From a virus, in IMG/VR virus record IMGVR_UViG_3300021956_000005: a DNA stretch of 34,902 nucleotides; one strand, given 5' to 3'. Below are positions 3,212 through 34,902 of the stretch, piece after piece (within the stretch, counting starts at the first letter, position 1; each line of letters starts with the position of its first letter). Below the pieces are notes generated by a model. It was not told where the DNA came from. It saw only the letters and a program-made list of their open reading frames with translations, and did not search any database. Position numbers and translations under genes: made by a program.

Positions 3212-3854
3212 GCATATCTGGACGGATGAAGAAGTAGATGCCCTGCGCATTCTTTACCCAATCACCAGGACACAGGACATTGCTGATCAGCTCAATATCC
3301 CGTTGTCCAAGATTTATCACAAGGCCAAGAATCTTGGTCTTAATAAATCTGAATCCTACATGCGAGCCGAACTTACCAGACAAGGTGAAAGATTAAAAAC
3401 AGTTGGAAATCCTGCCCGTTTCAAGAAGGGACACGCCTCATGGAACAAAGGCAAAAAAGGTCTTGCGCTAGGCGGTAAGCAAACTCAATTTAAGCCAGGC
3501 CATATCCCCCACACTATCAAACCGATTGGGTCTGAGCGCATTAGCCAGGACGGTTATTTAGAAAGAAAGGTAACAAACGAGGGTCCCGCTCGATCACATT
3601 ACAAATTCGTTCATCGAATTATTTGGGAAGAAGCTTATGGCTCTATCCCAAGAACCCATTACGTGACGTTCAAAAATGGAAATCGGCTGGATGTACGGCT
3701 TGAAAATCTTGAACTTATCAGCATGGCAGACCATGCCAGGCGAATCAGCATCATGCGTTATCCGGAAGAGATCCGCGAAATCATGCTGTTAAAAGGAAGG
3801 CTAACCAAAGCAATCAGAAAACGGGAAAAATTAGATGAAAAACAAAATTGTTGA
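3204..3854 (+). CDS. HNH_3-like endonuclease-related protein (catalytic motif apparently degenerate)
   Basis: GHxSWNKG / KPGHIPHT repeats and FVHRIIWEEAYGSIP ... NGNRLDVRLENLELIS resemble the HNH_3 family. The usual His preceding the NGN motif is replaced (VTFKNGN). The ATG at 3204 is internal to track ORF 3150..3854. Confidence 0.55.
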   Translation: MSRHIWTDEEVDALRILYPITRTQDIADQLNIPLSKIYHKAKNLGLNKSESYMRAELTRQGERLKTVGNPARFKKGHASWNKGKKGLALGGKQTQFKPGHIPHTIKPIGSERISQDGYLERKVTNEGPARSHYKFVHRIIWEEAYGSIPRTHYVTFKNGNRLDVRLENLELISMADHARRISIMRYPEEIREIMLLKGRLTKAIRKREKLDEKQNC

Positions 3855-4086
3855 TCTTAGAAACCACCTTTTTGCAACGCTTGAGGCGCTTCAAGACAAA
3901 GATGACCCAATGGATCTTGCCCGGGCAAAAGCCATTGCTGATGTAAGTCAAACCGTCATTAATAGCGTCAAAGTTGAAATCGACTTCATCAAAGTCACTG
4001 ACCAGGTAGATGCCGAAAGTAAGTTTTTTGATATCCACCCTCATCTGGAGACGCAGCAGCCTAAAAAGCTTGTCGGTGTTTCATGA
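3835..4086 (+). CDS. Hypothetical protein (83 aa)
   Basis: ORF track. It overlaps the upstream gene end and is coupled to the next gene (ATGA at 4083). Confidence 0.5.
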   Translation: MKNKIVDLRNHLFATLEALQDKDDPMDLARAKAIADVSQTVINSVKVEIDFIKVTDQVDAESKFFDIHPHLETQQPKKLVGVS

Positions 4087-4283
4087 CCAAATACGTCACT
4101 GGCCGTTATGTCATCACGATGTTTGATGAGCGCGGCACCAAGATCGGACAGTTTGCCTCCAAGGAAGGAGGACTTATTAGGGCGCAAGAGATTGGCGCCA
4201 ACTTGATCAGAGAAAAAAGATGCCATTCATTCAATGTGCACCTAAACGTATTCAACAGCATGGATCCGAAGGGCCCCTGGTGA
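4083..4283 (+). CDS. Hypothetical protein (66 aa)
   Basis: ORF track, same-strand coupled array. Confidence 0.45.
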   Translation: MTKYVTGRYVITMFDERGTKIGQFASKEGGLIRAQEIGANLIREKRCHSFNVHLNVFNSMDPKGPW

Positions 4284-7691: not shown

Positions 7692-8174
7692 CTAGATTTC
7701 AATTTTGGCGGCTTCAATGAACAATAGATCCAAATCGCTATCCGACCATCCCATGCCGGCAGCAATCGAAAGCAACATTGGTGATTCGCGCCGATACTCG
7801 ATGGCATTAGTCCAGGCCAGTTTGACCAAGGGATCGGTGGAGGCATTGACGTAAGCCTCCACTGCATCGAGCGAGCCTTCCTGCAATAACACGGCCTTGG
7901 CCTGTAGCGGTGAGACGGCTTGCGGCACCTCGCTGGGTGGCGGTGTCCAGGTCGGCAATGCCGGCGGCTGGGCATTCGGGAAATCCGCGCGAGTTAGGCC
8001 ATAGCGCCCAATCACGCTATTGTCCTCAATTGCCACAAAACGGCGGTTGATGTCATCGCGCTGGATCAGCCACAGGCTTCCTTCTAAAAGCTGCATGAAT
8101 TCCGCATGCTCCACAGTCCCCTCCAGGGCGTCCAAATCCTCACGGGTGTTAATGATGGTCGTGGCCAAGCTCAT
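7692..8174 (-). CDS. Hypothetical protein (160 aa) immediately downstream of, and overlapping, the DGR RT gene
   Basis: The ATG at 8174 is preceded by GGAG and overlaps the RT 3' end by 26 nt. It is the last gene before the terminator. It has a Pro-rich linker (PPALPTWTPPPSEVPQ). No family recognised with confidence. Confidence 0.55.
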   Translation of the reverse strand: MSLATTIINTREDLDALEGTVEHAEFMQLLEGSLWLIQRDDINRRFVAIEDNSVIGRYGLTRADFPNAQPPALPTWTPPPSEVPQAVSPLQAKAVLLQEGSLDAVEAYVNASTDPLVKLAWTNAIEYRRESPMLLSIAAGMGWSDSDLDLLFIEAAKIEI

Positions 8175-9165
8175 AATGACTCTCCAGGTAATGCAACAGA
8201 TGGTGGGTATCCGCCCAGCGGGCATGTCCTGCCCAGGCGGCAATGAATTGATTCAGCGCCACGGGATCCCTATGGGTGATGGCGTTCTGAATTTTGCGTT
8301 TGGCCCGGATGACGGAATCCTTGCGTAACAATTTATGCGTAGGCCAAATCCGGTAGCCGAGGAAATTGATGCCGCGGGACGTATTAGCCACCTGCCATTT
8401 GCTGATGCGAAGCCCGAGCTGGGTTTCGGCAAAGGTGCTCATGCGGGTGAACGTCTCACGCAGCGATTCCGAATCCTGACCCAGCACAATGATGTCGTCC
8501 ATGTAGCGGGCCCAGTGCCGTTCCTCGAGATCAAAATGCAAGAACCGATCGACCGCGCCGCCATAGACATTGGCAAACAGCTGCGAGGTCAGGCTCCCAA
8601 TCGGAAGGCCCTGCCCTTGAGGTGGAATAATTTCCCGCAATACAGCCAAAGTCTGAGGGCAACCAATCTTCTTTTCGATCATCCGATGCAAGACCGCATG
8701 CTGAATGCTCGGAAAAAACTTTCGAAAATCGGTTTTTAAAAAATGCGTCGCTTGAGTCTTCCGAAGGCGTGACTGAATATGACGCACCCCGGCATGGGTC
8801 CCAAGCCCAGGGCGACACGCAAAGGTATAAGGCAATAGGCTTTTCTCGAAGATTGGGCCAATGACGTTGCAGACTGCATGCTGAACCAGGCGATCTTTGA
8901 AGCCCAGAGCCGAAATCAGTCGCGGCTTGGGTTCAAAGATGGTGAATTCTCGATAAGGGCCGATCTGATATCGGCCTTCCAAAAGCTCATCCTGAATCTG
9001 TTTCAGATGCAGCTGATCGTATTCCTTGAAATTGAGATAGCCCCACGTCAGCCGCTTGCGTTGCGTGGTTCGAAAATAGGCCTGCCGCAGATTGGCCATA
9101 TCGGCAATCTTTGGCATCAATTGATAGTGAGGGGCGCTCATGAATGCTGGCCGCGCTTTTCCCAT
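8149..9165 (-). CDS. DGR reverse transcriptase
   Basis: RT motifs include LPIGSLTSQLFANVY (the DGR-type I/LGxxxSQ motif) and YMDDIIVLG (catalytic YxDD). The gene lies directly downstream of avd and TR. Alternative start at 9141. Confidence 0.93.
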   Translation of the reverse strand: MGKARPAFMSAPHYQLMPKIADMANLRQAYFRTTQRKRLTWGYLNFKEYDQLHLKQIQDELLEGRYQIGPYREFTIFEPKPRLISALGFKDRLVQHAVCNVIGPIFEKSLLPYTFACRPGLGTHAGVRHIQSRLRKTQATHFLKTDFRKFFPSIQHAVLHRMIEKKIGCPQTLAVLREIIPPQGQGLPIGSLTSQLFANVYGGAVDRFLHFDLEERHWARYMDDIIVLGQDSESLRETFTRMSTFAETQLGLRISKWQVANTSRGINFLGYRIWPTHKLLRKDSVIRAKRKIQNAITHRDPVALNQFIAAWAGHARWADTHHLLHYLESHYELGHDHH

Positions 9166-9288
9166 CCGTGGTACTCAGCGCTCTGCCAGACCCTGAAACG
9201 TGTTCCCCGAAGGAGGATCCCACCGGCTGACCACATGTTGAAGTGGACGGCCTGCTGAGCCTTGACCGCAGCAGAGCGAAGATCATGT

Positions 9289-9408
9289 GTCACAGGCGCA
9301 CCGCAACCCGATGTTGTTGTTCGAGTTCGAGGCAGCGTTGTTCCAGTTCGACGAACGCGAACCGCAGTTCGCCCCGTTGTTCCAGTTGCCGCCAAAGATC
9401 GCCGCGTT
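9289..9408 (-). repeat. DGR template repeat (TR), 120 bp
   Basis: It aligns without gaps to 9838..9957. In the coding sense it carries 12 AAC codons and starts at the avd stop codon. Confidence 0.9.
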
Positions 9409-9796
9409 AATTCCCGGTAGACCCCTGCTTTTTCTTCCGTTTGATCCACATGTTCAACATCCCGCCGACCTCGCTGACCAGTCCCTGGGCAAACTCGAGT
9501 TGATGATGGCTCATGCAGCGCTGAACGTGAAGAAATCGCATCCAAAAGCGAAGATGCGCGAGTCCCGCATCTGCCGCGTAAAGCTTGCCGACCTGATTGG
9601 ATTTTCCGGCCTGAAAGAACAGGTCCGGTTGCCGCATCAGGCATTGCAGAAACAGATCGCGGGCCACGCCATGCTTTCGAGGTATCGACTGAGCAATCGG
9701 GTAAAGATACCCAATCACGCGTTCGAATTTCTCGACAATGGCCATTTGGTCGTAGCATGCGATCTGCTCATCCGGTTGTTGGGGTTCGTCGCTCAT
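9407..9796 (-). CDS. avd: Accessory variability determinant (Avd)
   Basis: A 129-aa basic helical protein (KFERVIGYLYPIAQSIPRKHGVARDLF ... LRFWMRFL) in the canonical position between target gene and TR. It resembles the Avd / 23S-rRNA-IVS four-helix-bundle family. Confidence 0.8.
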   Translation of the reverse strand: MSDEPQQPDEQIACYDQMAIVEKFERVIGYLYPIAQSIPRKHGVARDLFLQCLMRQPDLFFQAGKSNQVGKLYAADAGLAHLRFWMRFLHVQRCMSHHQLEFAQGLVSEVGGMLNMWIKRKKKQGSTGN

Positions 9797-9803
9797 CCTG
9801 AGC

Positions 9804-9819
9804 GGGCGCTTTCGCGCCC
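9804..9819 (-). promoter_or_regulatory. GC hairpin with GAAA tetraloop just 3' of the VR-bearing gene
   Basis: The minus strand reads GGGCGC-GAAA-GCGCCC, a 6-bp perfect stem. It begins 1 nt after the target-gene stop codon and ends 7 nt before the avd ATG. Confidence 0.7.
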
Positions 9820-11463
9820 TTAATCAAGGATCAGGTGGTCACAGGCGCACCGCAACCCGATGGTGCTGCTCGAGGTCGAGGCAGCGTTGTCCCAGAGCGA
9901 CGAACGCGACCCGCAGCCCGCCCCGGTGCCCCAGGCGCCGCCAAAGAGCGCCGCGTTGGGTGGGTTATACGATTGGCCACGACCCCCGGTATCGGACTGC
10001 CAGGCGGCTGTGGTGTTATAGGGTCCGCCGCGTTCCTGTCCCCAGACCCACATGACGCCGGTGGCCTGAATCAGGCCCCATTTGGAGGTATAGGCTGCAT
10101 TCAGAATGGTCGAGCCTTGATCGGTCCCGATGGAGGAGCCTTCGGTCGTTCCATAGGCTGCTGCCATGAATTCCGATTGGAACAAAGGTCGCTTGCCATA
10201 GGCATGGGCGACTTCCTGCGCTTCAAACCAGGTCAAAGAACCGTAGGCGGTCGAGCCATTGCCGCCATAGAGCGTCGGGATCTTTGGGGGTGAGGAGCCA
10301 TCCGCAATGGTGACGTTATATTTCGAGGTGCCATTGGTCCCGGGATCGGTATTGGTCAGATAAATATCGGCCCAGAAGCCACCCGCGATCAGCGCCATGC
10401 CGCGCGGATCGGGACAGGCCGGTCGGAATTTCAAATCCCAGAAGGAATACTGATTAATCTGTGCGGTCGTATTGCCGCCTGTCGTGCCCGTGGCATTGCC
10501 GCCCGGCGCATAGTGGAATCCGCCGACCTTACGCGCCCCCGTTGTGGGAGGTGAGGTGTGATTGGTGGTGGCCTCTAAAGTGCCATCGGTTTTGGCCCAG
10601 ATGGCATAGTCGGTGCCGGCTGTGGCGGTACCAGGCATCGTCACCACCGTACCCGAGGCAATCGTCTTGATGGCGCCATTGACCTCGACATACAGCGCGG
10701 TCTGCGTTGAGACCGTAAAGTTGCCGGTTTTACTGAAAAGAACGACCGTGGGATCGGCTTTTCGAAACAGGCCATACCCCGGCGCCAAGGCGGCAATGGC
10801 CTGAGCAATCCGCAATGGCGTCATGGTTCGAAGTGCCGTAACGCTTCCAGCCTCCATCTCGGCCTGTGTGGCTGCGGTTTGAGCCAAAAGACTGGCTGTG
10901 ACATCAACATCGACCGTCATCGTCTTGGCGGTTGTTCCTCCTTGAAGAAGAAAACCGACTGCTTGGGGCGTGACGCCCAGCCCAGGAGCTCCCCGCGCAC
11001 CGGTTAGGGAGATATTCCAATCGGCTTTGCTTGTGGATCCTGAAATGACTTGAATGTCAATGGTGAGCTGATCGGCGGCATAGGCCGTAACTTGGCCAAA
11101 ACCCCAAATGCTGGGCGCCGAAGCCGAAACCACAGTGACAAAAATACCCGCCGTATATTGCTCACCTGCCTGAACCGTAAAGGTTTTAGAGCCAATGACT
11201 GGTGACCATGCGGTAGTCGATGTTGAGACAAAGGCGCCGGCAATCGCCGCGGCTGAGGCGGCGCTGGCTGAGGCAGCTGCTGCGGAAGCTGCGGCTTCCG
11301 TTGCTTTGGTGACCGTATTGGCGGCAACGGCGACCGTTTGTGCCAGGGCAGGAACAAAACGCGTCCGATGGCCACCATTGGCTAGTCCGGTGCTGGGATT
11401 GCTGTCATCGGTAACGGTTGAGCCGTCACCACCAACTGAGGTTGCGAATGTAACGCTGCTCAC
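9820..11463 (-). CDS. DGR target: tail fibre / receptor-binding protein with C-terminal C-type-lectin (FGE-sulfatase-like) fold
   Basis: It is the last gene of the tail module. It has an Ala-rich N-terminal helix. The C-terminus carries GVMWVWGQE ... FGGAWG ... GLRCA, which resemble CLec-fold DGR variable proteins (Mtd-like). It contains the VR. Confidence 0.88.
   Translation of the reverse strand: MSSVTFATSVGGDGSTVTDDSNPSTGLANGGHRTRFVPALAQTVAVAANTVTKATEAAASAAAASASAASAAAIAGAFVSTSTTAWSPVIGSKTFTVQAGEQYTAGIFVTVVSASAPSIWGFGQVTAYAADQLTIDIQVISGSTSKADWNISLTGARGAPGLGVTPQAVGFLLQGGTTAKTMTVDVDVTASLLAQTAATQAEMEAGSVTALRTMTPLRIAQAIAALAPGYGLFRKADPTVVLFSKTGNFTVSTQTALYVEVNGAIKTIASGTVVTMPGTATAGTDYAIWAKTDGTLEATTNHTSPPTTGARKVGGFHYAPGGNATGTTGGNTTAQINQYSFWDLKFRPACPDPRGMALIAGGFWADIYLTNTDPGTNGTSKYNVTIADGSSPPKIPTLYGGNGSTAYGSLTWFEAQEVAHAYGKRPLFQSEFMAAAYGTTEGSSIGTDQGSTILNAAYTSKWGLIQATGVMWVWGQERGGPYNTTAAWQSDTGGRGQSYNPPNAALFGGAWGTGAGCGSRSSLWDNAASTSSSTIGLRCACDHLILD
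9838..9957 (-). repeat. DGR variable repeat (VR), 120 bp, last 40 full codons before the 6-codon tail of the target gene
   Basis: 104/120 identical to TR. 15 of the 16 differences sit at TR adenines (coding sense). The invariant 3' part encodes IGLRCACD. Confidence 0.9.
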
Positions 11464-12329: not shown

Positions 12330-13865
12330 TTAGCCCCAAAGCGTGAGATCAAGGGTTCCAATGCGATAGTCGGGCTGTATTCCGATCACCCGGAAAAGCT
12401 TGCCCAAGGTATAACCAAATCGGTCAACCTTGACGGTTACTACATTCCCCAAATCAATGGTGTCAGTCGTGCCTGGCAAAACCTTAACCGTCAGGTTGAT
12501 TCGATCCTTCCTGTTTTTGTATAGATTAAGGCGCCGAGTAGCTTCTGTTTGCGCAGCTCCAGAATCAGTAAGAAGCGAATCGAAAGATAAAACCGGAGAT
12601 AGCAGGTGGGCCGTTAATACAGAAGAATCAGTCGCAAAAACTGTTCGATAGTCTTCAGCTAACCAGGCTTTAAATGCTGCTCCCACTGAAGTGGCCAGGC
12701 CAGATGTAATAACAGTGAAGTTTTTGGCATACCCCAGCCGGACCTGATAGGCCGGCACACCCTTGTCAGTATCTGCAGTTGCGGTTCTTTCAATATCAAT
12801 AATTTCTTGCTGCGTAAAAGTGGCAACAGAAGCGCCTGAAGGGGCATTTAGTTGAGCCATCCGAAATTGTCCGAGTCGATCAAAGCTATACCAGGCGCCA
12901 ACCGAATTACTGAGCGCATCCAATGCCGAATTGATGGTTTCATTTTCACTCAGATAAATTCCAAGGGTAGCGCTACCGGTTGCAGAATCTAGCGCTGTCA
13001 CGTCTGCGGCGACAATATCGCCTGCTGCAATACCACCCGGTCCGGTTACGATTGATTTAATGATTTGAGCTGCGGTTCGATCGGCGGCAACGGAACCCTG
13101 TGTTGCACTAGCCGTGATCGGGCCTGCAGGAGTCGATCCCAGTCGAAAATACCCGCCTGCAAGCCATGCCCGATAGGTGCCAGCCGATGGCGCGTTAGTC
13201 TCCATGTCAGCCTGTGAGCTATAGACTGCTCCAGCGGTCAGAGCAACGCCCTGATCATAGACCTGATCCAAAGAGGCCAACGGGCCATCATTGAGTTGAT
13301 AAATCAATCGCGCCGTGTTCACGATCGGCGGGCTGACGTTAAAAACCTTGCCGTAAAGCTTGGGCTTTGGTTTACCTTTTAAATCATCTGCAGTCCCTTC
13401 AAGGCCCGCAGGTAGTGCATTCGATCCTGCATATAAGGTCGTTTGAATCGGGCGGTCAAGTTCGGCCAGGCGATCCCGAATCCGGATGGTCAGACTTTGC
13501 CAGGTGAATTCTGGCTGCTCCATCGTGCCCTTGATCACGGTTGTAAAGCTGGCGCGGGCTGCTTTGCTATCTCCAAGGAGTACCCTGAAATTGCGGCCGT
13601 CAAAACCGTAATCCGCCATGCTATCGAGCGTTCCAAGGTTCACAAGCTCGATTAGGCCGTAGCCAGTCGTTGAGGCCCCGCCCGTGGATCCTTTAGAAAA
13701 AACATCACGCCGCATCAGGCCGGGCTGTTTAAGTTTTGGCTCATAAAAAGTGCTGGCAGGCGTATCGCTGGCCTTGGACGTAAAGCCATGCGTTGAAAAA
13801 TAAAGAGTTCTGACGCCTGAAATGGACGCGTCGTACGCCTCAATTTCTGCAAGGTAAATCAACAT
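12330..13865 (-). CDS. Putative minor/distal tail protein
   Basis: A 511-aa ORF whose start overlaps the tape-measure stop by 1 nt. The call rests on position. Confidence 0.45.
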   Translation of the reverse strand: MLIYLAEIEAYDASISGVRTLYFSTHGFTSKASDTPASTFYEPKLKQPGLMRRDVFSKGSTGGASTTGYGLIELVNLGTLDSMADYGFDGRNFRVLLGDSKAARASFTTVIKGTMEQPEFTWQSLTIRIRDRLAELDRPIQTTLYAGSNALPAGLEGTADDLKGKPKPKLYGKVFNVSPPIVNTARLIYQLNDGPLASLDQVYDQGVALTAGAVYSSQADMETNAPSAGTYRAWLAGGYFRLGSTPAGPITASATQGSVAADRTAAQIIKSIVTGPGGIAAGDIVAADVTALDSATGSATLGIYLSENETINSALDALSNSVGAWYSFDRLGQFRMAQLNAPSGASVATFTQQEIIDIERTATADTDKGVPAYQVRLGYAKNFTVITSGLATSVGAAFKAWLAEDYRTVFATDSSVLTAHLLSPVLSFDSLLTDSGAAQTEATRRLNLYKNRKDRINLTVKVLPGTTDTIDLGNVVTVKVDRFGYTLGKLFRVIGIQPDYRIGTLDLTLWG

Positions 13866-16800
13866 CAGGCGACCGCCCCTGCCAGCTTGTTGGCTGACTC
13901 CACCGAGGACAGGCGATCATCAATAGAGGTCAGAATTTTCATCAGCCCCTGATATCCCGCCTGGTCAACCCGAATTCCGGCGCTGACTGCATCCGTAACC
14001 GCATCCAGCTTCTCTGAATTGTTGTTGCCGGCAAGCATTTCCTTAGTCTGATTTGCGGTATAAACCATCCCTGGTCGACTGAATCTGACTAGCTCTGGAC
14101 CTTTTTCACCGACCATAGCAATGCCTTCTGAGGCCAGCCCGCCCTGGGCAAATCCAGGAATGAATCCCTTGGCAAGAAGATCCTTGTATTCAGCGCTCTG
14201 CCTAAACTGATAGGCCAATTCATCAGCTGTGATATGACCCCCCATCAGCTGCGCAAGCCGGCCCGTGTAGGCGCCTTCATTCTCCGGCTCTCGGCCCAGC
14301 AGCTGCTGGTAGTAGAAACGAATCATTCGCCGTGAGTAGTCTTCATTCAGTATCTGATAGGTTTCATCCTGGAAGGGGTTGTAGCCCATTCGGCCGCCGG
14401 GAACTTGTGGTGCAGTCGAAATCGGGACCGGTTTTGGCATCGGTATCGGTTGAACCACAGGCGCTGGAACTGGGACAGGCGTCGGTGCTACGGGAGCTGC
14501 TGCTTTACCCGCTGCGAGTGCCGCAATTGCCGCTTGATAATTGTTCATGGCGGTAATCATGTTATTCACGCCTTGAGCAACCGAGATCACGCCATCAGTT
14601 ATATTTCCAATTCCCGTGCTGATGCCCAACAATGCACCATAAGATTTTTCAGCAGCTATGAGCTGCTCTTTTGCGGTATTGGCTTGTTGCTCACTGAATG
14701 AAATTGCTTCAGTGACCGCCTTAATGACTTCTTCGCGATCTGCTTGAAACTGCAGGCTGGATGCGTTGTATTCTCTTGAGGCATCAAGAAACTCCTTGCC
14801 CACCGTATCCAGCTGTCCAATCGCGCCCTCATTGCCTAGAGCGGCCAGAGCGCTAACTCTTCGAAACTCCATTGCCGCGGATTCATATCGGCGCTCAGGT
14901 GAGGCCTGAAGATTTGTCAGTTCCAGCAGATAGGTTTTTAAGGTCTTGGAGGTCTGGATAAATCGATCTTGGGTTTTTTGTAGGTTCTGATAAGCATCCC
15001 TAAGTCCTGACAAGGCTTCACTTGAAGCTTCCTCAAGAGTTTTAAGCATTTCCTCATGGGCTTTTTTGGCTGCTTCATATTCAGCCTCTTTTGCCTTTCG
15101 AATTGCCTCTTCCTGTTTTTGAGCGTAACCAGCTGCAGCATCTGAAGCACTCGCAAATGCCGGCGCAAGAAGCACCAATTGGTTATAGAGGGCCTCTTGA
15201 GAAGGCACCAAAAGGTTTAGCCCATCAAGATATTTTCTAAATTCTTCCTTGCTCTGCGGCATCGATACGCCGAGTGCATCAAACTGTTTTTTGAGATCTG
15301 CCAATTGCTTAGCTGTTTTTTCTTCTGGCGTGAAAAAAGCATCTTCATAGGATTGCTTGATTTTTCGCGCAGCTGCTTCCGCTTCCTCGGCCGCTTTTCG
15401 CGCGGCATCCACAGCAGCCTGCGCGGCTTCGGCCTGCGCGTCTGCCAGATTTTTTGCAGCATCGGTAAAGTCAGAGAACGCCCCGCTCAAGGATAAAAAC
15501 TGCGCAAACAGTTTTTTGCCTTCAGTTGTAGTTTTGTCGATGCCCATTGCAATGGCATAAAACTGGTCTTTTGATTGAGGGAGACCATAGCCAAGCCGCG
15601 CAAATGCTTTCGTTAGCTCTTCGCTGTCTGAAGTCAGCTTTTGCTGGTCGGTCATAAAGTTATCGCGAAAAGTTTGCAGCGCTTCTTCAAACTTACTCAA
15701 GCCGCCGGCAGCATTGATCATTTCGCGATCAATGTTTTCGGTTCCAAATCCTGCCCCGCGCATCAGTCGGGTCACATTGGAAATTTGCTGATAAGCGGAA
15801 GCAATATCCTCTGCAGAACCCGTTAAGTCATTGACATACTGACGCGTTCCGGCGCTCAAATCCCCCTGGGCCATGATGACCTGACGCGTAATTTCAGCCG
15901 CTATGTCTCCTTCTTTCTCCTTGATTTCACTGTAGCTGATCGTGGTCATTCCTAATTGCTCAAGAATGCCTTTGGCGCGCGCGGAGCCTTCTGAAACGCG
16001 AATTAATGTGCCATAAAGCCCTTCATCAATTCGTTGAAACTCTTTTAGCGCGGGGTTAATTTGCTCTGCCCAGCGGTCTGCCTGCGCCGAAAGAGCCGCA
16101 GCAATATTCTCGGCATTTTTTTTACCGTCCTTGCCTAAGGGAATCCTGGGCATTTTTATGGCCAGGTTATTGATCTGTGCATCAAGACCCGGCCCTGACA
16201 TGCCGAGGAGCTCTGCAGATTTTCCGATTGTGCTGTAAATGCTTTTGAACGATTTTGAAAGCGCCTGAGCAATTGTGCTATCTAGCTTTCCAAAAATTGT
16301 TTCCAAGTTTTGAGAGGTGCTGCCCAACAAACCAAAAAGCGTCGAAGACTTTTTGGTTACCAGGACGTCCGCAAAGGTTTTTCCCTTAACCAAGGCGCCT
16401 TCGATAATGTCCCACAGCGATTGAGAGACCAGCTTAATGCCCTGACTGACCAGTTCCCGGGTGGTCTTGGTGCCGCCCCAAATCATTCCAGAAATGGGGT
16501 CAAATCCGGGCGCATTGGATGTTTTGGTCGCACCCAGATTAAGTTTTGCAGTATCGATTTTGAAAACCTTGGCTACAGCTGCCCCGGCTGAGTCCATGGC
16601 GTTAGCCAGGCGATTAAGATCTGCCGCCATCCCCTTGGTGTAATCAAGGTCATTACTTGAATTGTTGGCAATGAGATCGAGAGCATCTCGAATCGATGTG
16701 CTCATTTCTTCAGAGCCCAACATGGTTGCTGTGCTCCGCTTAAAGGCATCTTCCTGTTGCTTTTTCAGGTCTTCTGCAGAAACGCCACTTTGACTGCCTC

Positions 16801-19039
16801 CACTGCCACCGCTGATCATGATGCCTAGGCCGGCCATGAGGGCAACCCAGGCAGCTACGCGTGCAAAAGCAGAATAAGGATCGCCTTGGGTACCCTGGTT
16901 GGCAGCACCCTCAACCGCTTTGGCCTGAGCTTTAGCGGCGGACTGAGCAATCTCTTTCGTGGTGTTGACGGAAGAGATGATTCCCATTTGCTCAAGCGAT
17001 GCAGTGAAGAAATTCAGCATGCCGCCCATCTGTTCCATCTGCTTGACTGCAGACATCACAGATTGAGCCATTTCAAAGGCTCGGAAAACCTTGACGGCGC
17101 CCCCCATGGCTTCGTAACCCTTGGTCCCCTTCTGGAAAAATCCCTGAGCCGCTTGGGTCATATCTCCATAGGCTTTGATTTGCGTTCTTGAGCTTTTGAG
17201 CATGGCGTCTTGCTCAATCTCAAGCTTTCTCGTGGGATTCTTTTTAATATCTTCGGCAGCCTGAATGCTGATCGTTGCCTGTTGCTTGGCATATTCCGCC
17301 AAGGCCACAGTCATTCCGCCAATGGCTGTTCCCACATCCCCAAACGCATCAGAAAGGCCCGAAGCGATCTCCTTGGCATATTCCAAATTGGAAGAGAGAA
17401 CCTCGAGAGTCCGCAGTGCCTCCTCCCGCACATTCGTTTCGCCATCGATTCGAATGTCATTGAACTGTTTGGTTGCCTCAGCCATCTTGGCCATCGATTC
17501 CAGCTGGATCTGCGCTTTTTCTTCAGGCAGCGCCTGCTGCTGACTTAGCAGGGATTGCAGTTCCGTCTGTAGCTTGATCCGCTCGGATTGCTTGAGGTTA
17601 TATTTATCTGCGGCATCGATCTCCAGGTTGACCCCGTTAATTCGAGCCATCAACGCAGCTTCATCTTTGACCAGTTGCTCTTCTTTTAAGCGCGTTTCCT
17701 CGGCAATCAGGGCTTCCTGCTTTTTCCGGAGTTCATCGGCAATCTGCAGCTTTTGGTCCTGATTTTCAGCAGCCTTCATTTCAAGGCGTGCCGTTTCTTC
17801 GGCTTGCTTGCGCTCATTGTCAAATCGCATGGCGCTGGTTTTGGCCTGCGCGTCATACAACCGGGCAGCATCTTCGGCAGTCTTCACGTTGGCATCGATT
17901 GTCGCCTTGAATGCCGCTTCCGCATCGCTTGCGCCTTTTTTGGCGGTTTTGGTGGTCTTGGCAAAATGTGTGGCGACCGCAGTTGCTGCCTTTTCGCTTT
18001 TAGCAGCCAGTTCATCAATTGGGGTTTGGCCTTGCCCAAGCTTCATCAGTCGCTGCACTTCAGGATCATTTTGAGGGTCCACAGCATTGGTTTTTGTGCC
18101 TGTGATTTCCGCCAGGTCCAATCTTATGGTTGAAATGGCATCAGCAAGCTCAAGCCATGCCCAAACATTGGCCTGAGCTAGATACGTAACAACTTTCGCT
18201 ACTGGATCAACCATGGCATTGAAATTGTTAGCCATCAATTCAATGGTGGACGCTAATTCTGCGCTTGTCCCATTAGCCTGGTCGGCCTGCCCGATATAAG
18301 AGGTTGCAGCGTTTTCCAGCATTTGCCAGGCCTGCCCAACCGTGGTTTGCATGCTGGAAGCTTCCTGGCTCAGTGCGCTTGATTGGGATTCCAGGGCCTT
18401 GATGACCTGCTCTGAGGTCAACTTGCCCTCAGTCGCCATTTGCCGGAGGGCGCCGATCGGTACCTGAAGGCCATCGGCAATCGCTCGGGCCAGCCGCGGG
18501 CCATTCTCCATGACGGAATTGAATTCTTCGCCGCGCAGCACGCCTGAAGCCAAGGCTTGGCTCAGCTGCGTGGTAACGCTTGCAGCTTCCGAGGTTGAGG
18601 CGCCGGAGACTTTTAGAGCCTTGCCGACACTGTCGACGACCTTAAGCACTTGCGCTTGGCTGGCCCCCATGTCTCGCATTCCCACCGCAATCCGGCTATA
18701 GAGGCTGACCGTTTCGACCAGTGCCGTTTTATTGTTTTGGGCAATGGTAAACAGCGATTTTTGTGCATTGGCATATTCATCGGCGGAAGCTGTCGCCAGC
18801 TTCAACTTGGAATTCATGTTGGTATAGGCATCAGTCGTCTCAATCAATTGCTTGACTGAGAATGCCGCACCCATGGCAGCAAAAGCGCTTTTGGCCACGC
18901 TCGCCATTGAGCTCAAATTGGTCTCAATGGATTTGGCTGATTTACCAACTTCGCCCAGGCTCTGACGAATGCGATTAAATTCCAAATCGGCAGTTTTTCC
19001 ATCCGCCGTGATTTTGATGCCAAGCTGTAAATCGCCCAT
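13865..19039 (-). CDS. Tail tape measure protein (1724 aa) with C-terminal DUF4214-like segment
   Basis: The size and the long Ala/Gln/Glu/Lys coiled-coil composition are typical, and the gene follows the G/GT chaperone. The C-terminal motif reads GFAQGG ... MVGEKGPELV. LLGREPENEGAYTGRLAQL ... SAEY at 14177-14338 resembles DUF4214. Confidence 0.93.
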   Translation of the reverse strand: MGDLQLGIKITADGKTADLEFNRIRQSLGEVGKSAKSIETNLSSMASVAKSAFAAMGAAFSVKQLIETTDAYTNMNSKLKLATASADEYANAQKSLFTIAQNNKTALVETVSLYSRIAVGMRDMGASQAQVLKVVDSVGKALKVSGASTSEAASVTTQLSQALASGVLRGEEFNSVMENGPRLARAIADGLQVPIGALRQMATEGKLTSEQVIKALESQSSALSQEASSMQTTVGQAWQMLENAATSYIGQADQANGTSAELASTIELMANNFNAMVDPVAKVVTYLAQANVWAWLELADAISTIRLDLAEITGTKTNAVDPQNDPEVQRLMKLGQGQTPIDELAAKSEKAATAVATHFAKTTKTAKKGASDAEAAFKATIDANVKTAEDAARLYDAQAKTSAMRFDNERKQAEETARLEMKAAENQDQKLQIADELRKKQEALIAEETRLKEEQLVKDEAALMARINGVNLEIDAADKYNLKQSERIKLQTELQSLLSQQQALPEEKAQIQLESMAKMAEATKQFNDIRIDGETNVREEALRTLEVLSSNLEYAKEIASGLSDAFGDVGTAIGGMTVALAEYAKQQATISIQAAEDIKKNPTRKLEIEQDAMLKSSRTQIKAYGDMTQAAQGFFQKGTKGYEAMGGAVKVFRAFEMAQSVMSAVKQMEQMGGMLNFFTASLEQMGIISSVNTTKEIAQSAAKAQAKAVEGAANQGTQGDPYSAFARVAAWVALMAGLGIMISGGSGGSQSGVSAEDLKKQQEDAFKRSTATMLGSEEMSTSIRDALDLIANNSSNDLDYTKGMAADLNRLANAMDSAGAAVAKVFKIDTAKLNLGATKTSNAPGFDPISGMIWGGTKTTRELVSQGIKLVSQSLWDIIEGALVKGKTFADVLVTKKSSTLFGLLGSTSQNLETIFGKLDSTIAQALSKSFKSIYSTIGKSAELLGMSGPGLDAQINNLAIKMPRIPLGKDGKKNAENIAAALSAQADRWAEQINPALKEFQRIDEGLYGTLIRVSEGSARAKGILEQLGMTTISYSEIKEKEGDIAAEITRQVIMAQGDLSAGTRQYVNDLTGSAEDIASAYQQISNVTRLMRGAGFGTENIDREMINAAGGLSKFEEALQTFRDNFMTDQQKLTSDSEELTKAFARLGYGLPQSKDQFYAIAMGIDKTTTEGKKLFAQFLSLSGAFSDFTDAAKNLADAQAEAAQAAVDAARKAAEEAEAAARKIKQSYEDAFFTPEEKTAKQLADLKKQFDALGVSMPQSKEEFRKYLDGLNLLVPSQEALYNQLVLLAPAFASASDAAAGYAQKQEEAIRKAKEAEYEAAKKAHEEMLKTLEEASSEALSGLRDAYQNLQKTQDRFIQTSKTLKTYLLELTNLQASPERRYESAAMEFRRVSALAALGNEGAIGQLDTVGKEFLDASREYNASSLQFQADREEVIKAVTEAISFSEQQANTAKEQLIAAEKSYGALLGISTGIGNITDGVISVAQGVNNMITAMNNYQAAIAALAAGKAAAPVAPTPVPVPAPVVQPIPMPKPVPISTAPQVPGGRMGYNPFQDETYQILNEDYSRRMIRFYYQQLLGREPENEGAYTGRLAQLMGGHITADELAYQFRQSAEYKDLLAKGFIPGFAQGGLASEGIAMVGEKGPELVRFSRPGMVYTANQTKEMLAGNNNSEKLDAVTDAVSAGIRVDQAGYQGLMKILTSIDDRLSSVESANKLAGAVA

Positions 19040-19051
19040 GGTATGCCGCCC

Positions 19052-19366
19052 TTAGTCTTTCGGAAGTTTGGTTTCGGCCCATTGCTCCAATAGGAGAATG
19101 GTTCGGCTGCCCATGTGGCCCGCAATGCCGACCAGTGCGGCAGAAACTAAAGGATCGATTTCGCCAGCTTCACAGAGCCAAAAGGTCAGGACGCCAGCAA
19201 AACCCGCCGTGACAATCTCACCGACCAATTCCAGAATGTTGAAGGCGCGCGATTTGCCTTCACGAATCTTTTGTATAAATGAAACCACGCCACCCACCAT
19301 GGAAAGTCCCAAGACCCAGGAGTAGGTCAAGATGTCGTAACTGGTAGGGTCTTTCGATGGGTCCAT
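19052..19366 (-). CDS. Holin-like membrane protein (104 aa, about 3 TM helices)
   Basis: The ATG at 19366 follows GAGGA. Hydrophobic segments: ILTYSWVLGLSMVGGVVSFI, ILELVGEIVTAGFAGVLTFWL, LVSAALVGIAGHMG. It lies directly downstream of the endolysin. Longer starts at 19393 or 19429 are possible. Confidence 0.6.
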   Translation of the reverse strand: MDPSKDPTSYDILTYSWVLGLSMVGGVVSFIQKIREGKSRAFNILELVGEIVTAGFAGVLTFWLCEAGEIDPLVSAALVGIAGHMGSRTILLLEQWAETKLPKD

Positions 19367-19400
19367 CAGGTTTTCCTCTTTATGAGATGCCATGGCAGGC

Positions 19401-19772
19401 CTATCTAGGCAGCTGCCAGTGGGGTCCATCCTTAAAACTGGTCCAGTCGCCTCCCCACTCGATCTGAACTCCCAATTCCTGAGCTGCTGTCTTCATGGCT
19501 TCGGAAAGGGGGTAATAATCCTCCCAGTTCCAGGACGGCTTGCCGTCTTTCAAGGGGGCCAAATCCACGGCATGACCCGTGATGTGGCGTGAATTCAGGG
19601 TGCGGGTTGCCCCTTTATCAAAAAGGTATTTCTGTCGTTCCCGAGTCCTCAGTCCTTCAATCACCATAAAATCAATTGGTGTGATCTCAAGGGCTCGATG
19701 CACCACCCGAACCAGATCGGGATGCAAGCCTCTTAGCCGTTGCTGTGATTTCTCGGAAAGACAAAATCCCAT
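19401..19772 (-). CDS. Peptidase M15 (VanY / L-Ala-D-Glu or D-Ala-D-Ala peptidase type) endolysin
   Basis: LHPDLVRVV ... VIEGLRTRERQ ... SRHITGHAVDL ... FKDGPHWQL, i.e. an H-x6-D ... H zinc-ligand pattern typical of M15 phage endolysins. Confidence 0.85.
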   Translation of the reverse strand: MGFCLSEKSQQRLRGLHPDLVRVVHRALEITPIDFMVIEGLRTRERQKYLFDKGATRTLNSRHITGHAVDLAPLKDGKPSWNWEDYYPLSEAMKTAAQELGVQIEWGGDWTSFKDGPHWQLPR

Positions 19773-19774
19773 GC

Positions 19775-20589
19775 TTATTTCCTCGGTTTATTGAGAAGCG
19801 GCAAAGCAAAACGCTCCATTTCAATAATTCCTTTGAAGATTGAGCGGCGCTCTTTTTGATACCCCAGAAGCCGAATGGTCACTTCAATCTCGCTGTAACG
19901 CAGTCCATGCCAGATCATTTGTCCTGCCAGGGTGATTTCTTTTCGCCACTGGGTTTGGAGTGCCAGAAACACCAGCACTGTGGTCCAGTTTTCTGACCAA
20001 ACCTCAAAATGATCTTCATTCGGCAGTGCAATCGATTCCATTTCGCTTTCATCGATTCCGAAGGCGCGAAAAGCGCCTTCAAGATCATCGGATCCAATCG
20101 GTTCTGCTACATTGGGGTTTGCCCAATAGCGCGCCGCTTCAATCAGTTTTTTCTTTTGCCCTCGCCGGAGTTGGCCTCGTTGTAGGCGGCCTTGATGGCG
20201 GCATAGATCCCCGGGGTGAAGCGTATGAGCCTGACCAGGTTGTCCCGGTTAAATTCCATCGGGCCCTCATCGTCAGAAACATCTTTCCAGCCACAAAGGA
20301 TCTCCAGAAGGTCATCCGCCATCTGCTCAGAGGACAGGCTGTTTTTTCCTTGGCGAATGAGTTCAGCGGTGAATTTGCTATTGACTAGCGCAAGGTCGCC
20401 ATCATGTTCAGCCATGAGATTGGCCCAGATCTGCGCACCATCGGCCATTTGCCGATCGCGGACCTGGTCAATATCGAGACGTTTAAACTTGAAAATGATG
20501 GTGATCTTGGTGGACTGTCCATTCTCCTGAATCGCATGCACACTGGCCGGGTAGAAGAAACTGTCTGATACGCTGAGCTTGAATCCCAT
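19775..20589 (-). CDS. Tail assembly chaperone frameshift product (gpGT-like; -1 shift at 20146-20152)
   Basis: The -1 frame is open from the slippery site (..LIEAARYWANPNVAEPIGSDDLEGAFRAFGIDESE..) into track ORF 19775..20041, which has no independent RBS context. Frame arithmetic was checked by hand. Confidence 0.6.
20143..20589 (-). CDS. Tail assembly chaperone (gpG-like)
   Basis: It sits between tail tube and tape measure. It is acidic and ends in a slippery heptamer. GAGGG RBS. Confidence 0.7.
   Translation of the reverse strand: MGFKLSVSDSFFYPASVHAIQENGQSTKITIIFKFKRLDIDQVRDRQMADGAQIWANLMAEHDGDLALVNSKFTAELIRQGKNSLSSEQMADDLLEILCGWKDVSDDEGPMEFNRDNLVRLIRFTPGIYAAIKAAYNEANSGEGKRKN
20146..20152 (-). 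promoter_or_regulatory. Programmed -1 ribosomal frameshift heptamer A_AAA_AAC
   Basis: The minus strand reads GGC AAA AGA AAA AAC TGA. The X_XXY_YYZ heptamer lies immediately before the G stop codon. Confidence 0.6.
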
Positions 20590-22595: not shown

Positions 22596-22777
22596 TCTGC
22601 TGCCTTGCCTTTTACAGGCTTGGATGCCACCGGCTTTTCGGCTTCAACGGCTTTCTGCATCAGTTTGAGATCCTTTGCATCAGCTTCAGAGACGGCATCC
22701 GGCACAACCAGGATGGTGCCAGCGTCATACATGACGCCGGCCACACCACAAGGCTCGATCAATTTGATGGCTTCCAT
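22592..22777 (-). CDS. Hypothetical small protein (61 aa) after the capsid gene
   Basis: ORF track, coupled on both sides. Confidence 0.45.
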   Translation of the reverse strand: MEAIKLIEPCGVAGVMYDAGTILVVPDAVSEADAKDLKLMQKAVEAEKPVASKPVKGKAAE

Positions 22778-24729
22778 TAGCTGGTAACCACGTCAGTGGC
22801 TGCCGCAAAGCTCGCCGCGTGACGAACGGCAACGTCTACATCCTGCAGCGCCACGATGCGGAGCGTTCCAGAAGTTGAGTTGCTGTAAGGATCAACGGTG
22901 AGATCCAGGCCACCCCACATGCCGATCAGAAGATCTGCGAAGTTGCCGAAGATGATGGCGGAGAGCGCGGTACCAGATCCCTTGGTGAGATCTGAAGGAA
23001 CGGCATTGGTGACGGCTGCGTTATAGCCATTGACCATGCTGTCCATGCCCCACACAGGCTGTTCGCCATAAGTGGCATTGGTGAACGTGCCCTTGAGCTT
23101 GCCGCGAACCTTGGCGTTGGTGAGGTAAGCCAGGGTGCCGACATCGGCATTGGCTGCAGCCACCAGGCTTTCAAGATTAACGATCTGGGCCCAGGTCGGT
23201 GCCGTACCATCAGCGCCTGCGCTGGAAGCATTACCGATACCAGAGGTGTTCAGGATGCCGCGCGGGGTCGGTGCCGTACCGCTGCCATTGATGGCGGCCT
23301 GCTGAATCGCGAGACCCAGAACGGTCGCCAGATCCTGACGGACCATCGCTTCGATATCGAGTGAAGACTGAAGCAGGAGCTTACGGCTGATATCCGTGAA
23401 CGCGCCGACCGTCTTCGGGCTCATGGTGACCTGGTCAAAGGTCTGCTGGCTTTCAGTCGGTGCACTGGACTCTGAAACCCAGTAGGCCGTTGAAGCGCCA
23501 GAAAGGCGCGGAATGGCAATGTTGCCCACCAGGCCAGTCAGCATGCGAGCGCCCAAGCTCGGCAACACCATGGCATTGCGCAGAAGCTCGATAAAGTCCT
23601 GAGCCAGGAGGTCCGTCGCTACGGTGTAGCCACCGGCCGAGTTGGTACCAACGGTCAGATCACGCTTGCCGCCCAAGACGTCAAACGGGACCAGGGCGCC
23701 GCGCGGTGCACGGACAGCGATATCGGCCGCTGCGCGAGCGCAGTCTAATTCGAAAGCGGCTGCTTCCTGAGCGCGAAGGTCTTTCGGATGCGCCAGAGCA
23801 TTCAGAAGACGGACCAGGCTGTATTTGCGAATTTCCTGAGTCGACATGCCGATGGTGGCCGGCGCATCGCCCATGGCGCGCTTGGACATATCGGGCATGC
23901 GTTCCAGAAGGGCATCCTTCATGTCATCAACGCTGCGACCCGCGCTGATCATTTCAAGAGCTAGATCGCGACCACCAAGGTGGGCGGCTTTCTCGCCAAG
24001 GGTACGGATTTCCGCAATGCGCGATTTCTCGGCCTCACGGACGCCATTTTCAATTGCCTGCACATCTACAGGCTGGGGGGTTTTCTCTGTCATAGTTCCT
24101 CCTGTAGGGATGCAGACAGTGGTGGTTGAAGTCACAGTGATACAGTCCTCCCCCTCGGATTCCGTTTCGCTTTCGCCATTCGGATCCATGGGATCGGTAG
24201 AAGTCAGGGCGTCATCTCGCTTGGGTTCACACGCTTTATTTGAGCGACCCACGCCGGCCTGAATATCGGCCGGGCAGCTGACAAGGGAAATCTCATAGGG
24301 AGTCCATGAGGTAATCCGATAGGTTTCGATGTCATCCATCATCCCGACCAGGACAGCCGCGTTAACCATGTAGCCAACGCTGACGTTTTTCCGGATGCCA
24401 TCGACCACATCCTGGAAAATCTCTTGGCCTCGGGCGGATTGCGAAAACCGGACGACAGCCCGGCAGACGCGATCGGGATCGATGCGGACCGACTCAATGA
24501 CGCCGACCTGGTCACAGGGATCGTGATCCATCAGCAATGGCCCTGAGGCAATCAGGCGCGAAAGATCGACGCTGGCAACAGTGCAATCAAGAATCTCGTA
24601 GCCATACCAACGCTCATAAGGCGCTTCGGTAGCAAAAGCCAGTTCGACGGTGCGCTTTTCCAGATCGATAGCGCGGGTTTCAAAGGCAGCTGCGCGAGCT
24701 GCCTTCTCGTTAAGCTTGGGTTGAGCCAT
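22777..24729 (-). CDS. Fusion of HK97-family prohead protease (N-terminal) with HK97-fold major capsid protein (C-terminal)
   Basis: The N-terminal region (PLLMDHD ... VGVIESV ... VSVGY ... YEISLVSCPAD) resembles prohead protease S78/U35. An acidic/helical linker follows. The C-terminal region (SAGGYTVATDLLAQDFIELLRNAMVLPSLGARMLTGLVGNIAIPR ...) is typical of HK97 MCP. It is a single uninterrupted 650-codon frame. Confidence 0.8.
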   Translation of the reverse strand: MAQPKLNEKAARAAAFETRAIDLEKRTVELAFATEAPYERWYGYEILDCTVASVDLSRLIASGPLLMDHDPCDQVGVIESVRIDPDRVCRAVVRFSQSARGQEIFQDVVDGIRKNVSVGYMVNAAVLVGMMDDIETYRITSWTPYEISLVSCPADIQAGVGRSNKACEPKRDDALTSTDPMDPNGESETESEGEDCITVTSTTTVCIPTGGTMTEKTPQPVDVQAIENGVREAEKSRIAEIRTLGEKAAHLGGRDLALEMISAGRSVDDMKDALLERMPDMSKRAMGDAPATIGMSTQEIRKYSLVRLLNALAHPKDLRAQEAAAFELDCARAAADIAVRAPRGALVPFDVLGGKRDLTVGTNSAGGYTVATDLLAQDFIELLRNAMVLPSLGARMLTGLVGNIAIPRLSGASTAYWVSESSAPTESQQTFDQVTMSPKTVGAFTDISRKLLLQSSLDIEAMVRQDLATVLGLAIQQAAINGSGTAPTPRGILNTSGIGNASSAGADGTAPTWAQIVNLESLVAAANADVGTLAYLTNAKVRGKLKGTFTNATYGEQPVWGMDSMVNGYNAAVTNAVPSDLTKGSGTALSAIIFGNFADLLIGMWGGLDLTVDPYSNSTSGTLRIVALQDVDVAVRHAASFAAATDVVTS

Positions 24730-34685: not shown

Positions 34686-34831
34686 CAAGTCGAGTGAGCC
34701 AATCGGTGGTTAGTTTTGCGAATGGCTCTGGCTTTACATTCCTTGCACCATGGCTGCATGTGCTTGACGCCATGGCAAAGGTCAAAGTCACCCAATGGCC
34801 TGAACGTCTTGCAATGAGGGCAGCGCTTCAT
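34685..34831 (-). CDS. Small zinc-ribbon protein (48 aa; CPHC ... CKEC)
   Basis: Hand-read ORF MKRCPHCKTFRPLGDFDLCHGVKHMQPWCKECKARAIRKTNHRLAHST. Its 5' part lies in the terminal overlap, and a truncated copy sits at nt 1-56. Confidence 0.5.
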   Translation of the reverse strand: MKRCPHCKTFRPLGDFDLCHGVKHMQPWCKECKARAIRKTNHRLAHST

Positions 34832-34902
34832 TGAGCGCCCTGCCCTGGTATCCGCCATCCCGATGGCGAACGCACCAATGCAATGCCGGTCTCTTCATAA
34901 AC
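34776..34902. repeat. Terminal overlap, copy 2 (identical to 1..127)
   Basis: Direct comparison, 127/127 identical. Confidence 0.95.

Follow-up and report, generated by a model that had tools for sequence, protein, structure and literature searches.

The viral sequence analysed here, IMG/VR record IMGVR_UViG_3300021956_000005, is 34,902 nt long and is referred to over its whole length as the window. Its minus strand carries, in this order, an mtd-like target gene, a 23-nt intergenic stretch with a hairpin, the accessory gene avd, a template repeat (TR), a spacer (Sp) RNA and a gene for a reverse transcriptase (RT), and the 3' end of the target gene holds a variable repeat (VR) that is a diverged copy of TR (Table 1). 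The arrangement is almost certainly that of a diversity-generating retroelement (DGR) of the type found in the Bordetella phage BPP-1, carried by an uncultured temperate long-tailed phage and operating, by analogy with BPP-1, through mutagenic retrohoming. This reading draws on the anatomy of the cassette, the homology of each of its parts, an adenine-specific pattern of differences between the two repeats and the diversification of the phage population at TR-adenine sites. The DGR has recently been active in this lineage.

Table 1. Features of the DGR cassette in window positions; IMH, initiation of mutagenic homing; L numbers denote loci of the population comparison.
Feature	Position	Strand	Basis or remark
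Mtd-like tail/receptor-binding protein, 547 aa	9820..11463	-	PDB, Pfam and PHROG matches
VR	9838..9957	-	codons 503-542 of the 547-codon target gene; 17 different sequences among 19 public loci
IMH-like 3' end of VR	9824..9858	-	alignment with BPP-1 VR/TR
Hairpin/cruciform GGGCGC-GAAA-GCGCCC	9804..9819	-	between mtd stop (9820-9822) and avd start (9796)
avd accessory gene, 129 aa	9407..9796	-	Pfam bAvd PF22296, E 2e-27; PDB 4dwl Bbp7, E 3e-47
TR	9289..9408	-	27 adenines; identical in the window, L002, L003, L007, L010 and L013
Spacer (Sp) part of the DGR RNA	9146..9277	-	Rfam RF03022 Phage_DGR
DGR reverse transcriptase, 330 aa from ATG 9141	8149..9141	-	PDB 8ub7 bRT, E 6e-142, 63% identity

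TR and VR form the single strong internal direct repeat of the window, a gap-free pair of 120-nt copies that are 87% identical and whose homology breaks off sharply at both edges; a third repeat copy, a second VR or a second target was not found in the window. The coding sense of the pair is the minus strand, on which TR is the promoter-distal copy. VR occupies the 3' end of a coding target, and the non-coding TR is located between avd and the RT gene. When counted base by base in the coding sense, the repeats differ at 16 positions, 15 of which are adenines in TR (8 A>G, 6 A>C and 1 A>T). The probability that at least 15 of 16 differences would fall on 27 adenines among 120 positions is 5.2e-11 (hypergeometric). 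The sole non-adenine difference, T48>G at window position 9911, converts GGT to GGG and is silent, with glycine kept. At the codon level, TR contains 12 in-frame AAC codons, and all but codons 1 and 24 are altered in VR; the ATC codon 4 is altered as well (I>L). The original prediction, made from the letters of the sequence, had described a gap-free 120-nt alignment with substitutions at 15 of the 27 TR adenines, one silent GGT to GGG change and the rewriting of 10 of the 12 AAC codons. The direct-repeat search confirmed the alignment, the base counts were reproduced exactly, the codon figure agrees with a recount on the minus strand, and the translations it gave for both repeats equal the frame-0 translations letter for letter. 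Its interpretation of the pattern as the adenine-specific signature of a DGR is supported by the probability given above and by the presence of DGR components in canonical order beside the repeat pair.

The RT belongs to the DGR clade. It combines a catalytic YxDD box (YMDD at position 221) with the sequence IGSLTSQ, an instance of the signature [I/V/L]GxxxSQ that defines this clade (PMC7826257), and in addition to its PDB match it is recognized by Pfam RVT_1 and PHROG 1423. I189 and R82 are the equivalents of I181 and R74 of the BPP-1 enzyme bRT, two residues shown to promote adenine mutagenesis (PMC7826257). The longest open reading frame (ORF) for the RT starts at 9165 and comprises 338 aa, and an exact-sequence look-up with this version returned no match; public gene calls and the alignment with bRT favour the ATG at 9141 (330 aa). 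The accessory protein Avd is 65% identical to BPP-1 Avd. Between TR and the RT gene, the spacer matches the Rfam model of bacteriophage DGR RNA over its full length (1-127) with 97.4 bits against a gathering score of 50. The minimum free energy (MFE) fold of TR plus Sp RNA is no better than that of shuffled sequences (z = -0.2), so that the evidence for the RNA is the covariance-model match and not a thermodynamic fold. Two further reading frames were noted in this part of the cassette. In public gene calls, a 206-aa ORF (9138-9758, minus strand) in another frame extends over the spacer RNA, TR and the 3' part of avd, and avd itself is often missing from these calls; the ORF has no Pfam match and is very likely no real gene but a product of the open, A-poor repeat. 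Another ORF (7692-8243, minus strand) overlaps the 3' end of the RT gene, measures 183 aa at its longest and 160 aa in public calls, and is kept in all full-length relatives; its sole match is PHROG 6034, a family of unknown function.

Residues 233-547 of the target protein are homologous to BPP-1 Mtd (PDB 1yu0-1yu4, E ~1e-93, 55% identity over 314 aa), and the protein also matches the Pfam family mtd_2nd, the second domain of Mtd, as well as the tail protein family PHROG 11262. The fold of the target is taken from this 55% identity to solved Mtd structures, and the domain that contains VR would accordingly adopt a C-type-lectin fold, by homology to the solved CLec domain of Mtd (E 1e-93). Residues 1-232 (window 10768-11463, minus strand) form an N-terminal part that is unrelated to Mtd, includes an Ala/Ser-rich stretch and has no PDB or Pfam match. 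These approximately 230 residues stand in place of about the first 56 residues of BPP-1 Mtd and presumably serve as an adaptor to the long tail of the window phage. The set of variable codons consists of 11 AAC codons, each of which can give rise to 15 amino acids and no stop codon, and two ATC codons with four amino acids each; the computed number of possible receptor-binding faces is about 1.4e14 proteins from these 13 codons. Ten of the AAC codons and one ATC codon fall at sites whose homologues in BPP-1 Mtd are its variable residues 344-369. In the central part of the gene, positions 10298-10440 show ~70% identity over ~140 nt to the tail-fibre gene 17 of T7 (blastn, E 1e-6), which may reflect a shared tail-fibre module or chance.

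The sequence signals around VR and within the spacer could also be aligned with those of BPP-1, for which the IMH element has been defined (PMC3240598). In the window, a G/C-rich 14-mer, GGGTTGCGGTGCGC (9845-9858), which is the same in TR, is followed by the 21-mer CTGTGACCACCTGATCCTTGA (9824-9844). The 21-mer parts from TR after CTGTGAC, and its TR counterpart reads CTGTGACACATGATCTTCGCT. Such an asymmetry between the element at VR (IMH) and its equivalent at TR (IMH*) would set the direction of transfer. The sequence GACCACCTGA of the IMH-like region is kept in relatives. Beyond the stop codon, the hairpin occupies the position of the BPP-1 hairpin, which is functionally required in that phage (PMC3240598), and a 61-nt stretch folded as DNA has an MFE z-score of -2.3. 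Relatives possess hairpins with other G/C stems and 4-nt loops reading GAAA, GCAA or GGTA. At the target site, an IMH unlike its TR counterpart thus precedes a G/C hairpin whose 4-nt loop is of the GRNA type. In the spacer, the motif GTGGTCAGCCGG is identical to Sp positions 50-61 of BPP-1 and contains the predicted priming context Sp C55-A56-G57 within the RF03022 match. As BPP-1 cDNA is primed at Sp A56, with TR G117 as the reference for its start (PMC6182149), the equivalent adenosine at window position 9228 is the probable priming site. Likewise, conservation of the CTG-TG initiation context would place the first templated base at TR G116 (window 9293), which aligns to G117 of the BPP-1 TR.

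An active element should leave variation only at sites that are adenines in TR, while TR itself stays monomorphic. This expectation was tested on public assemblies of the same phage, in place of read mapping. Eighteen further loci were collected from ENA, JGI, Logan, IMG/VR and GenBank metagenomes, giving 19 loci with the window included. TR is covered in 14 of the loci; six loci have a TR identical to that of the window, and six TR variants occur in all. Six of the collected contigs (L004, L011, L015, L016, L017 and L018) end just past VR or within the avd-TR stretch, as assemblies are expected to do at a repeat whose VR copy differs between strains. As in the window pair, the differences between each VR and its own TR fall almost wholly on TR adenines: summed over 13 distinct own-TR/VR pairs, 190 of 345 adenines are altered (55%), compared to 1 of 446 cytosines, 1 of 493 guanines and 9 of 276 thymines. 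For C and G sites together this amounts to 2 of 939, or about 0.2%. The natural rate of change at adenines is close to the misincorporation of 51.6% per adenine measured in vitro for bRT-Avd (PMC7826257). The non-adenine differences number 11, of which seven belong to the diverged TR 3' end of a mosaic locus (L006) and one is the last TR base in L017.

Across the 17 VRs, 24 of the 27 adenines vary, and only A1, A2 and A119 never do. The first two belong to the 9-nt stretch of 5' homology in which recombination of the cDNA has to take place; A119 lies 3' of the predicted cDNA start and should therefore never be copied, which fits the proposed initiation site. The same sites stand out at the protein level. 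The window Mtd is part of a 90%-identity cluster of 25 proteins; the 15 members listed share 96-100% identity with the window protein, and hypervariability among them is seen in columns 506, 510, 512, 513, 516, 523, 525, 526, 530, 532, 533, 534 and 535. These 13 columns are exactly the A-containing codons of TR, minus the first AAC and the last GAC. Among six close relatives, mean pairwise identity is 85.7% for VR, compared to 99.5% for TR, 99.0% for avd, 97.0% for mtd upstream of VR and 94.2% for the RT gene.

The direction of information transfer can be read from TR variants at non-adenine positions, which are mirrored in the cognate VR in L008 and L009 (three positions) and in L012, L014 and L019 (C48). 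Together with L005, described below, this mirroring of TR variants in the VRs of the same loci indicates a flow from TR to VR. The assemblies thus combine a constant TR, a VR that varies at adenine sites and one-way transfer between them. The sharpest case is a near-isogenic pair, L014 and L019, obtained from the consecutive runs SRR26341417 and SRR26341416: outside VR, 1 of 7,524 nt differs, and inside VR 19 of 120 nt differ, 18 of these at TR adenines. The original prediction of variation confined to TR-adenine sites beside a monomorphic TR consequently holds at the level of the lineage (55% of A sites compared to ~0.2% of C and G sites; TR 99.5% identical). Its further statement that the element has been active is borne out for the lineage, most sharply by L014 and L019, rather than for the individual window genome.

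By homology to the BPP-1 components (PMC6182149, PMC3240598), the window element would act through RT-dependent mutagenic retrohoming with an RNA intermediate. A complex of RT and Avd would bind an RNA that spans the 3' end of avd, TR and the spacer. Synthesis of cDNA would be primed from the 2'-OH of the spacer adenosine at 9228 and would start at TR G116 (9293), after which TR would be copied toward its 5' end faithfully, save opposite adenines, where any nucleotide could be inserted about half the time. The cDNA is then predicted to replace VR at the 3' end of the mtd-like gene, guided by the IMH-like motif and the GAAA hairpin past the stop codon, with the 5' junction forming in the 9-nt homology AACGCGGCG. 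As a result, 13 codons (11 AAC and two ATC) of the C-type-lectin receptor-binding face would be randomised, while the protein scaffold and TR would remain constant. In this scheme, the priming site, the initiation site and the role of the hairpin are assigned by analogy with BPP-1, as is the probable benefit to the phage, namely a switch of host range or tropism.

Several observations weigh against a fully functional element in the window. Locus L003, the sole further assembly to share the window's flanks (4 differences in 6,211 nt), carries an identical VR and TR, T48G included, and the window clone may have been stable when it was sampled. The G/C block of the IMH-like element is broken by three T, and the hairpin stem of 6 bp is one below the range of 7-10 bp of functional or observed phage DGR hairpins (PMC3240598), the fold itself predicting only 4-5 bp. 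Moreover, adenines in the population were replaced by G in 94 cases, T in 52 and C in 44, whereas bRT-Avd in vitro prefers dA opposite A; selection could account for this gap. The VR shared by the window and the independent L003, the short stem and the interrupted G/C block would suit a genuine DGR that is now inactive in this genome, its VR being the frozen product of past homing. Such an inactivation is nevertheless improbable: RT, Avd, TR, Sp RNA and the target-site motifs are intact, with the catalytic and mutagenesis residues conserved, sister loci with the same TR and hairpin/IMH (e.g., L002, L013 and the VR flank of L006) carry other VRs, and in L014 and L019 VR was turned over while a single base among 7,524 flanking positions changed.

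Explanations that dispense with retrohoming fare far worse. An ordinary tandem segmental duplication, shaped by point mutation and selection so that the adenine bias would be a coincidence or a product of codon-level selection, has nothing in its favour beyond the repeat itself. It would have to produce 15 of 16 differences on adenines (p = 5e-11) and, over 13 pairs, 190 changes at A compared to two at C or G, with changes to all three other bases and with one copy remaining non-coding, invariant and next to an RT gene, which makes it scarcely credible. Assemblies of the window phage often break at the VR/TR repeat, as in L004, L011, L015, L016 and L018, and the pattern could in principle be an assembly artefact or a chimera of strains; however, both repeats recur unchanged in the independent ENA assembly L003, the cassette is laid out alike in 33-35 kb contigs that cover it in several samples, and an artefact would have no preference for adenine positions, so that this origin has a vanishingly small chance of being correct. 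A similarly negligible likelihood applies to an adenosine deaminase, or to other local hypermutation independent of TR, altering the adenines of VR. A>G is indeed the commonest change (8 of 15 in the window and 94 of 190 overall), but A>C and A>T, which deamination could not yield, account for about half of the changes, non-adenine TR variants are copied into the cognate VR, and the window contains a DGR RT, Avd and RNA, while no deaminase was found in it.

With the cassette taken as a BPP-1-type DGR that has been active in its lineage, some of the assemblies bear on how strictly the template and the adenine specificity are maintained. Three non-adenine changes lie inside the mutagenised tract, and all of them are T>G. 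T48G is present in the window and L003 and, independently, in L017, which has another upstream haplotype and another pattern at A sites. T11G is found in the VR of L014; since the flanks of L014 and L019 are identical, a recent homing event is a more probable source of this change than a later mutation. The T>G changes may be compatible with the low error of bRT-Avd at U, reported as 0.4-1.2% (PMC7826257), or with a hot spot. Two of the templates also stand out. In L005, TR (4056-4175) reads AGCTCCAGC where all other TRs read AACAACAAC; four adenines, at positions 89, 91, 92 and 95, are lost within 7 nt, and the VR of the same locus (3509-3628) has the same bases. This suggests that patch conversion from VR to TR, or mis-homing of cDNA, overwrote the template. 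An assembly chimera was considered as the source of this TR and rejected, because TR-specific bases occur within a few nt on either side of the VR-like patch at 89-95, and a cross-over in a de Bruijn graph would need two switches in stretches shorter than the usual k-mer. In the mosaic L006 (minus strand from 10951), TR bases 1-101 are those of the window, and from there on TR and the spacer are those of another DGR lineage, similar to a locus in an Akkermansiaceae metagenome-assembled genome (MAG), L020; VR, IMH and hairpin remain of the window type, and the recombination breakpoint is inside TR. As a tentative and rather unlikely proposal, the lineage may show both occasional rewriting of the template and a recurrent non-adenine error, which are usually held to be excluded or negligible. 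If both were true, these loci would constitute a natural record of TR erosion and module swapping, as well as of sequence-context-dependent misincorporation at uracil by a DGR RT.

The phage that carries the element is represented by a circular (or terminally redundant) assembly, as indicated by a perfect terminal direct repeat of 127 nt (1-127 = 34776-34902). The unique part of the assembly is 34,775 bp long, and further contigs of this phage in public data measure 33.1-34.2 kb. The GC content is about 52%, and among the genes are those for an integrase, primase, terminase, portal and capsid-protease fusion, for a 1,724-aa tape-measure protein, for tail-chaperone-like and minor tail proteins, and for lysis. 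The fusion is deduced from a 650-aa protein (22777-24729, minus strand) with matches to major head protein PHROGs as well as to head protease PHROGs. The lysis genes, an endolysin (PHROG 465, E 6e-62) and a holin (PHROG 785, E 5e-26) at 19052-19772 on the minus strand, are unusually placed between the tail-chaperone-like ORF (20143-20589) and the tape-measure gene (13865-19039). The large terminase subunit (TerL) has at most ~43% identity among the phage matches listed, with prophages of Wolbachia and Ralstonia scoring best, and BPP-1 TerL is not among the best 12 phage matches listed. BPP-1, of the genus Rauchvirus, is a short-tailed phage (podovirus) of 42.5 kb. The window phage was not found to have the genome-wide relatedness by which Rauchvirus is delimited, the blastn comparison having covered the DGR cassette only. 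To judge from its genes, the carrier is a temperate long-tailed phage unrelated to BPP-1. A DNA pattern derived from TR had no match among genome representatives, and a scan of genomes with the RT protein retrieved only relatives of 52-66% identity (Akkermansiaceae, Thiobacillus, Pandoraea and a gammaproteobacterium), none of them close enough to indicate the host of the phage.

In its design, the element is an ordinary textbook-type DGR, and it leaves the understanding of these systems unchanged. Its modest value lies in the movement of a whole BPP-1 cassette into an unrelated long-tailed temperate phage with another Mtd N-terminus. The cis elements that were defined experimentally in BPP-1, i.e. 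the spacer priming motif, the initiation context, the IMH and the GAAA hairpin, moved along with the genes, and this transfer supports both the view of DGRs as portable modules and the generality of the rules derived from BPP-1. In addition, the many assemblies of a single phage amount to a natural experiment, with 17 VRs, a change at 55% of adenines and a near-isogenic pair. Once a host is found, the complete circular genome of 34.8 kb could serve as a second, sequence-diverged model for retrohoming of the BPP-1 type.

The closest known counterpart is the DGR of BPP-1, shared with BMP-1, BIP-1 and vB_BbrP_003, which has the same gene order (mtd-avd-TR-spacer-brt) and the same strand logic as the window, where these components likewise occupy one strand and include an accessory protein of the bAvd family. 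Identity to BPP-1 amounts to 55% for the C-terminal 314 aa of Mtd, 65% for Avd and 63% for RT. At the nucleotide level, 58% of the 3.3-kb cassette aligns by blastn to BPP-1 and its sister Bordetella phages with ~66% identity, and the match spans RT, TR, avd and the 3' part of mtd including VR. Both systems share the priming motif GTGGTCAGCCGG, the CTGTG initiation context, the IMH-like GACCACCTGAT and a GAAA hairpin past the stop codon. They differ in the 3' end of VR (CTGTGACCACCTGATCCTTGA in the window and CTGTGACCACCTGATTCTTGA in BPP-1), in the length of the TR/VR identity block (120 nt compared to 134 nt), in the hairpin stem (6 bp compared to 8 bp), in the three T that interrupt the G/C 14-mer of the window and in the N-terminal ~230 aa of the window Mtd. 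The variable codons are not entirely the same either, since the window has two additional ones (506 ATC and 533 AAC) and lacks the ACG codon 348 of BPP-1.

BPP-1-like DGRs with RTs of 52-66% identity are also present in bacterial genomes: two Thiobacillus MAGs (L021 and L023), a gammaproteobacterial MAG (L024), the Akkermansiaceae MAG (L020) and Pandoraea nosoerga (L022). In the Pandoraea locus, no TR/VR pair was detected at the thresholds used. In the four MAG loci, TR is located just upstream of the RT gene and VR ~530-575 nt upstream of TR, and all four have adenine-biased mismatches, the GACCACCTG motif and a hairpin with a 4-nt loop past the stop codon; their TR sequences and hairpin stems differ from those of the window. 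More than 30,000 DGRs have been catalogued; those of phages have tail proteins as their most frequent targets and show broad activity in metagenomes (PMC8144416). Other characterised systems, such as Legionella LdtA, Treponema TvpA and the DGRs of Bacteroides and gut phages, have the same combination of RT and TR/VR, adenine mutagenesis and a C-terminal C-type-lectin domain as the window element. They are far more distant from it, however, and many of them use other accessory proteins, other target architectures or multiple VRs, whereas the window contains a single VR.

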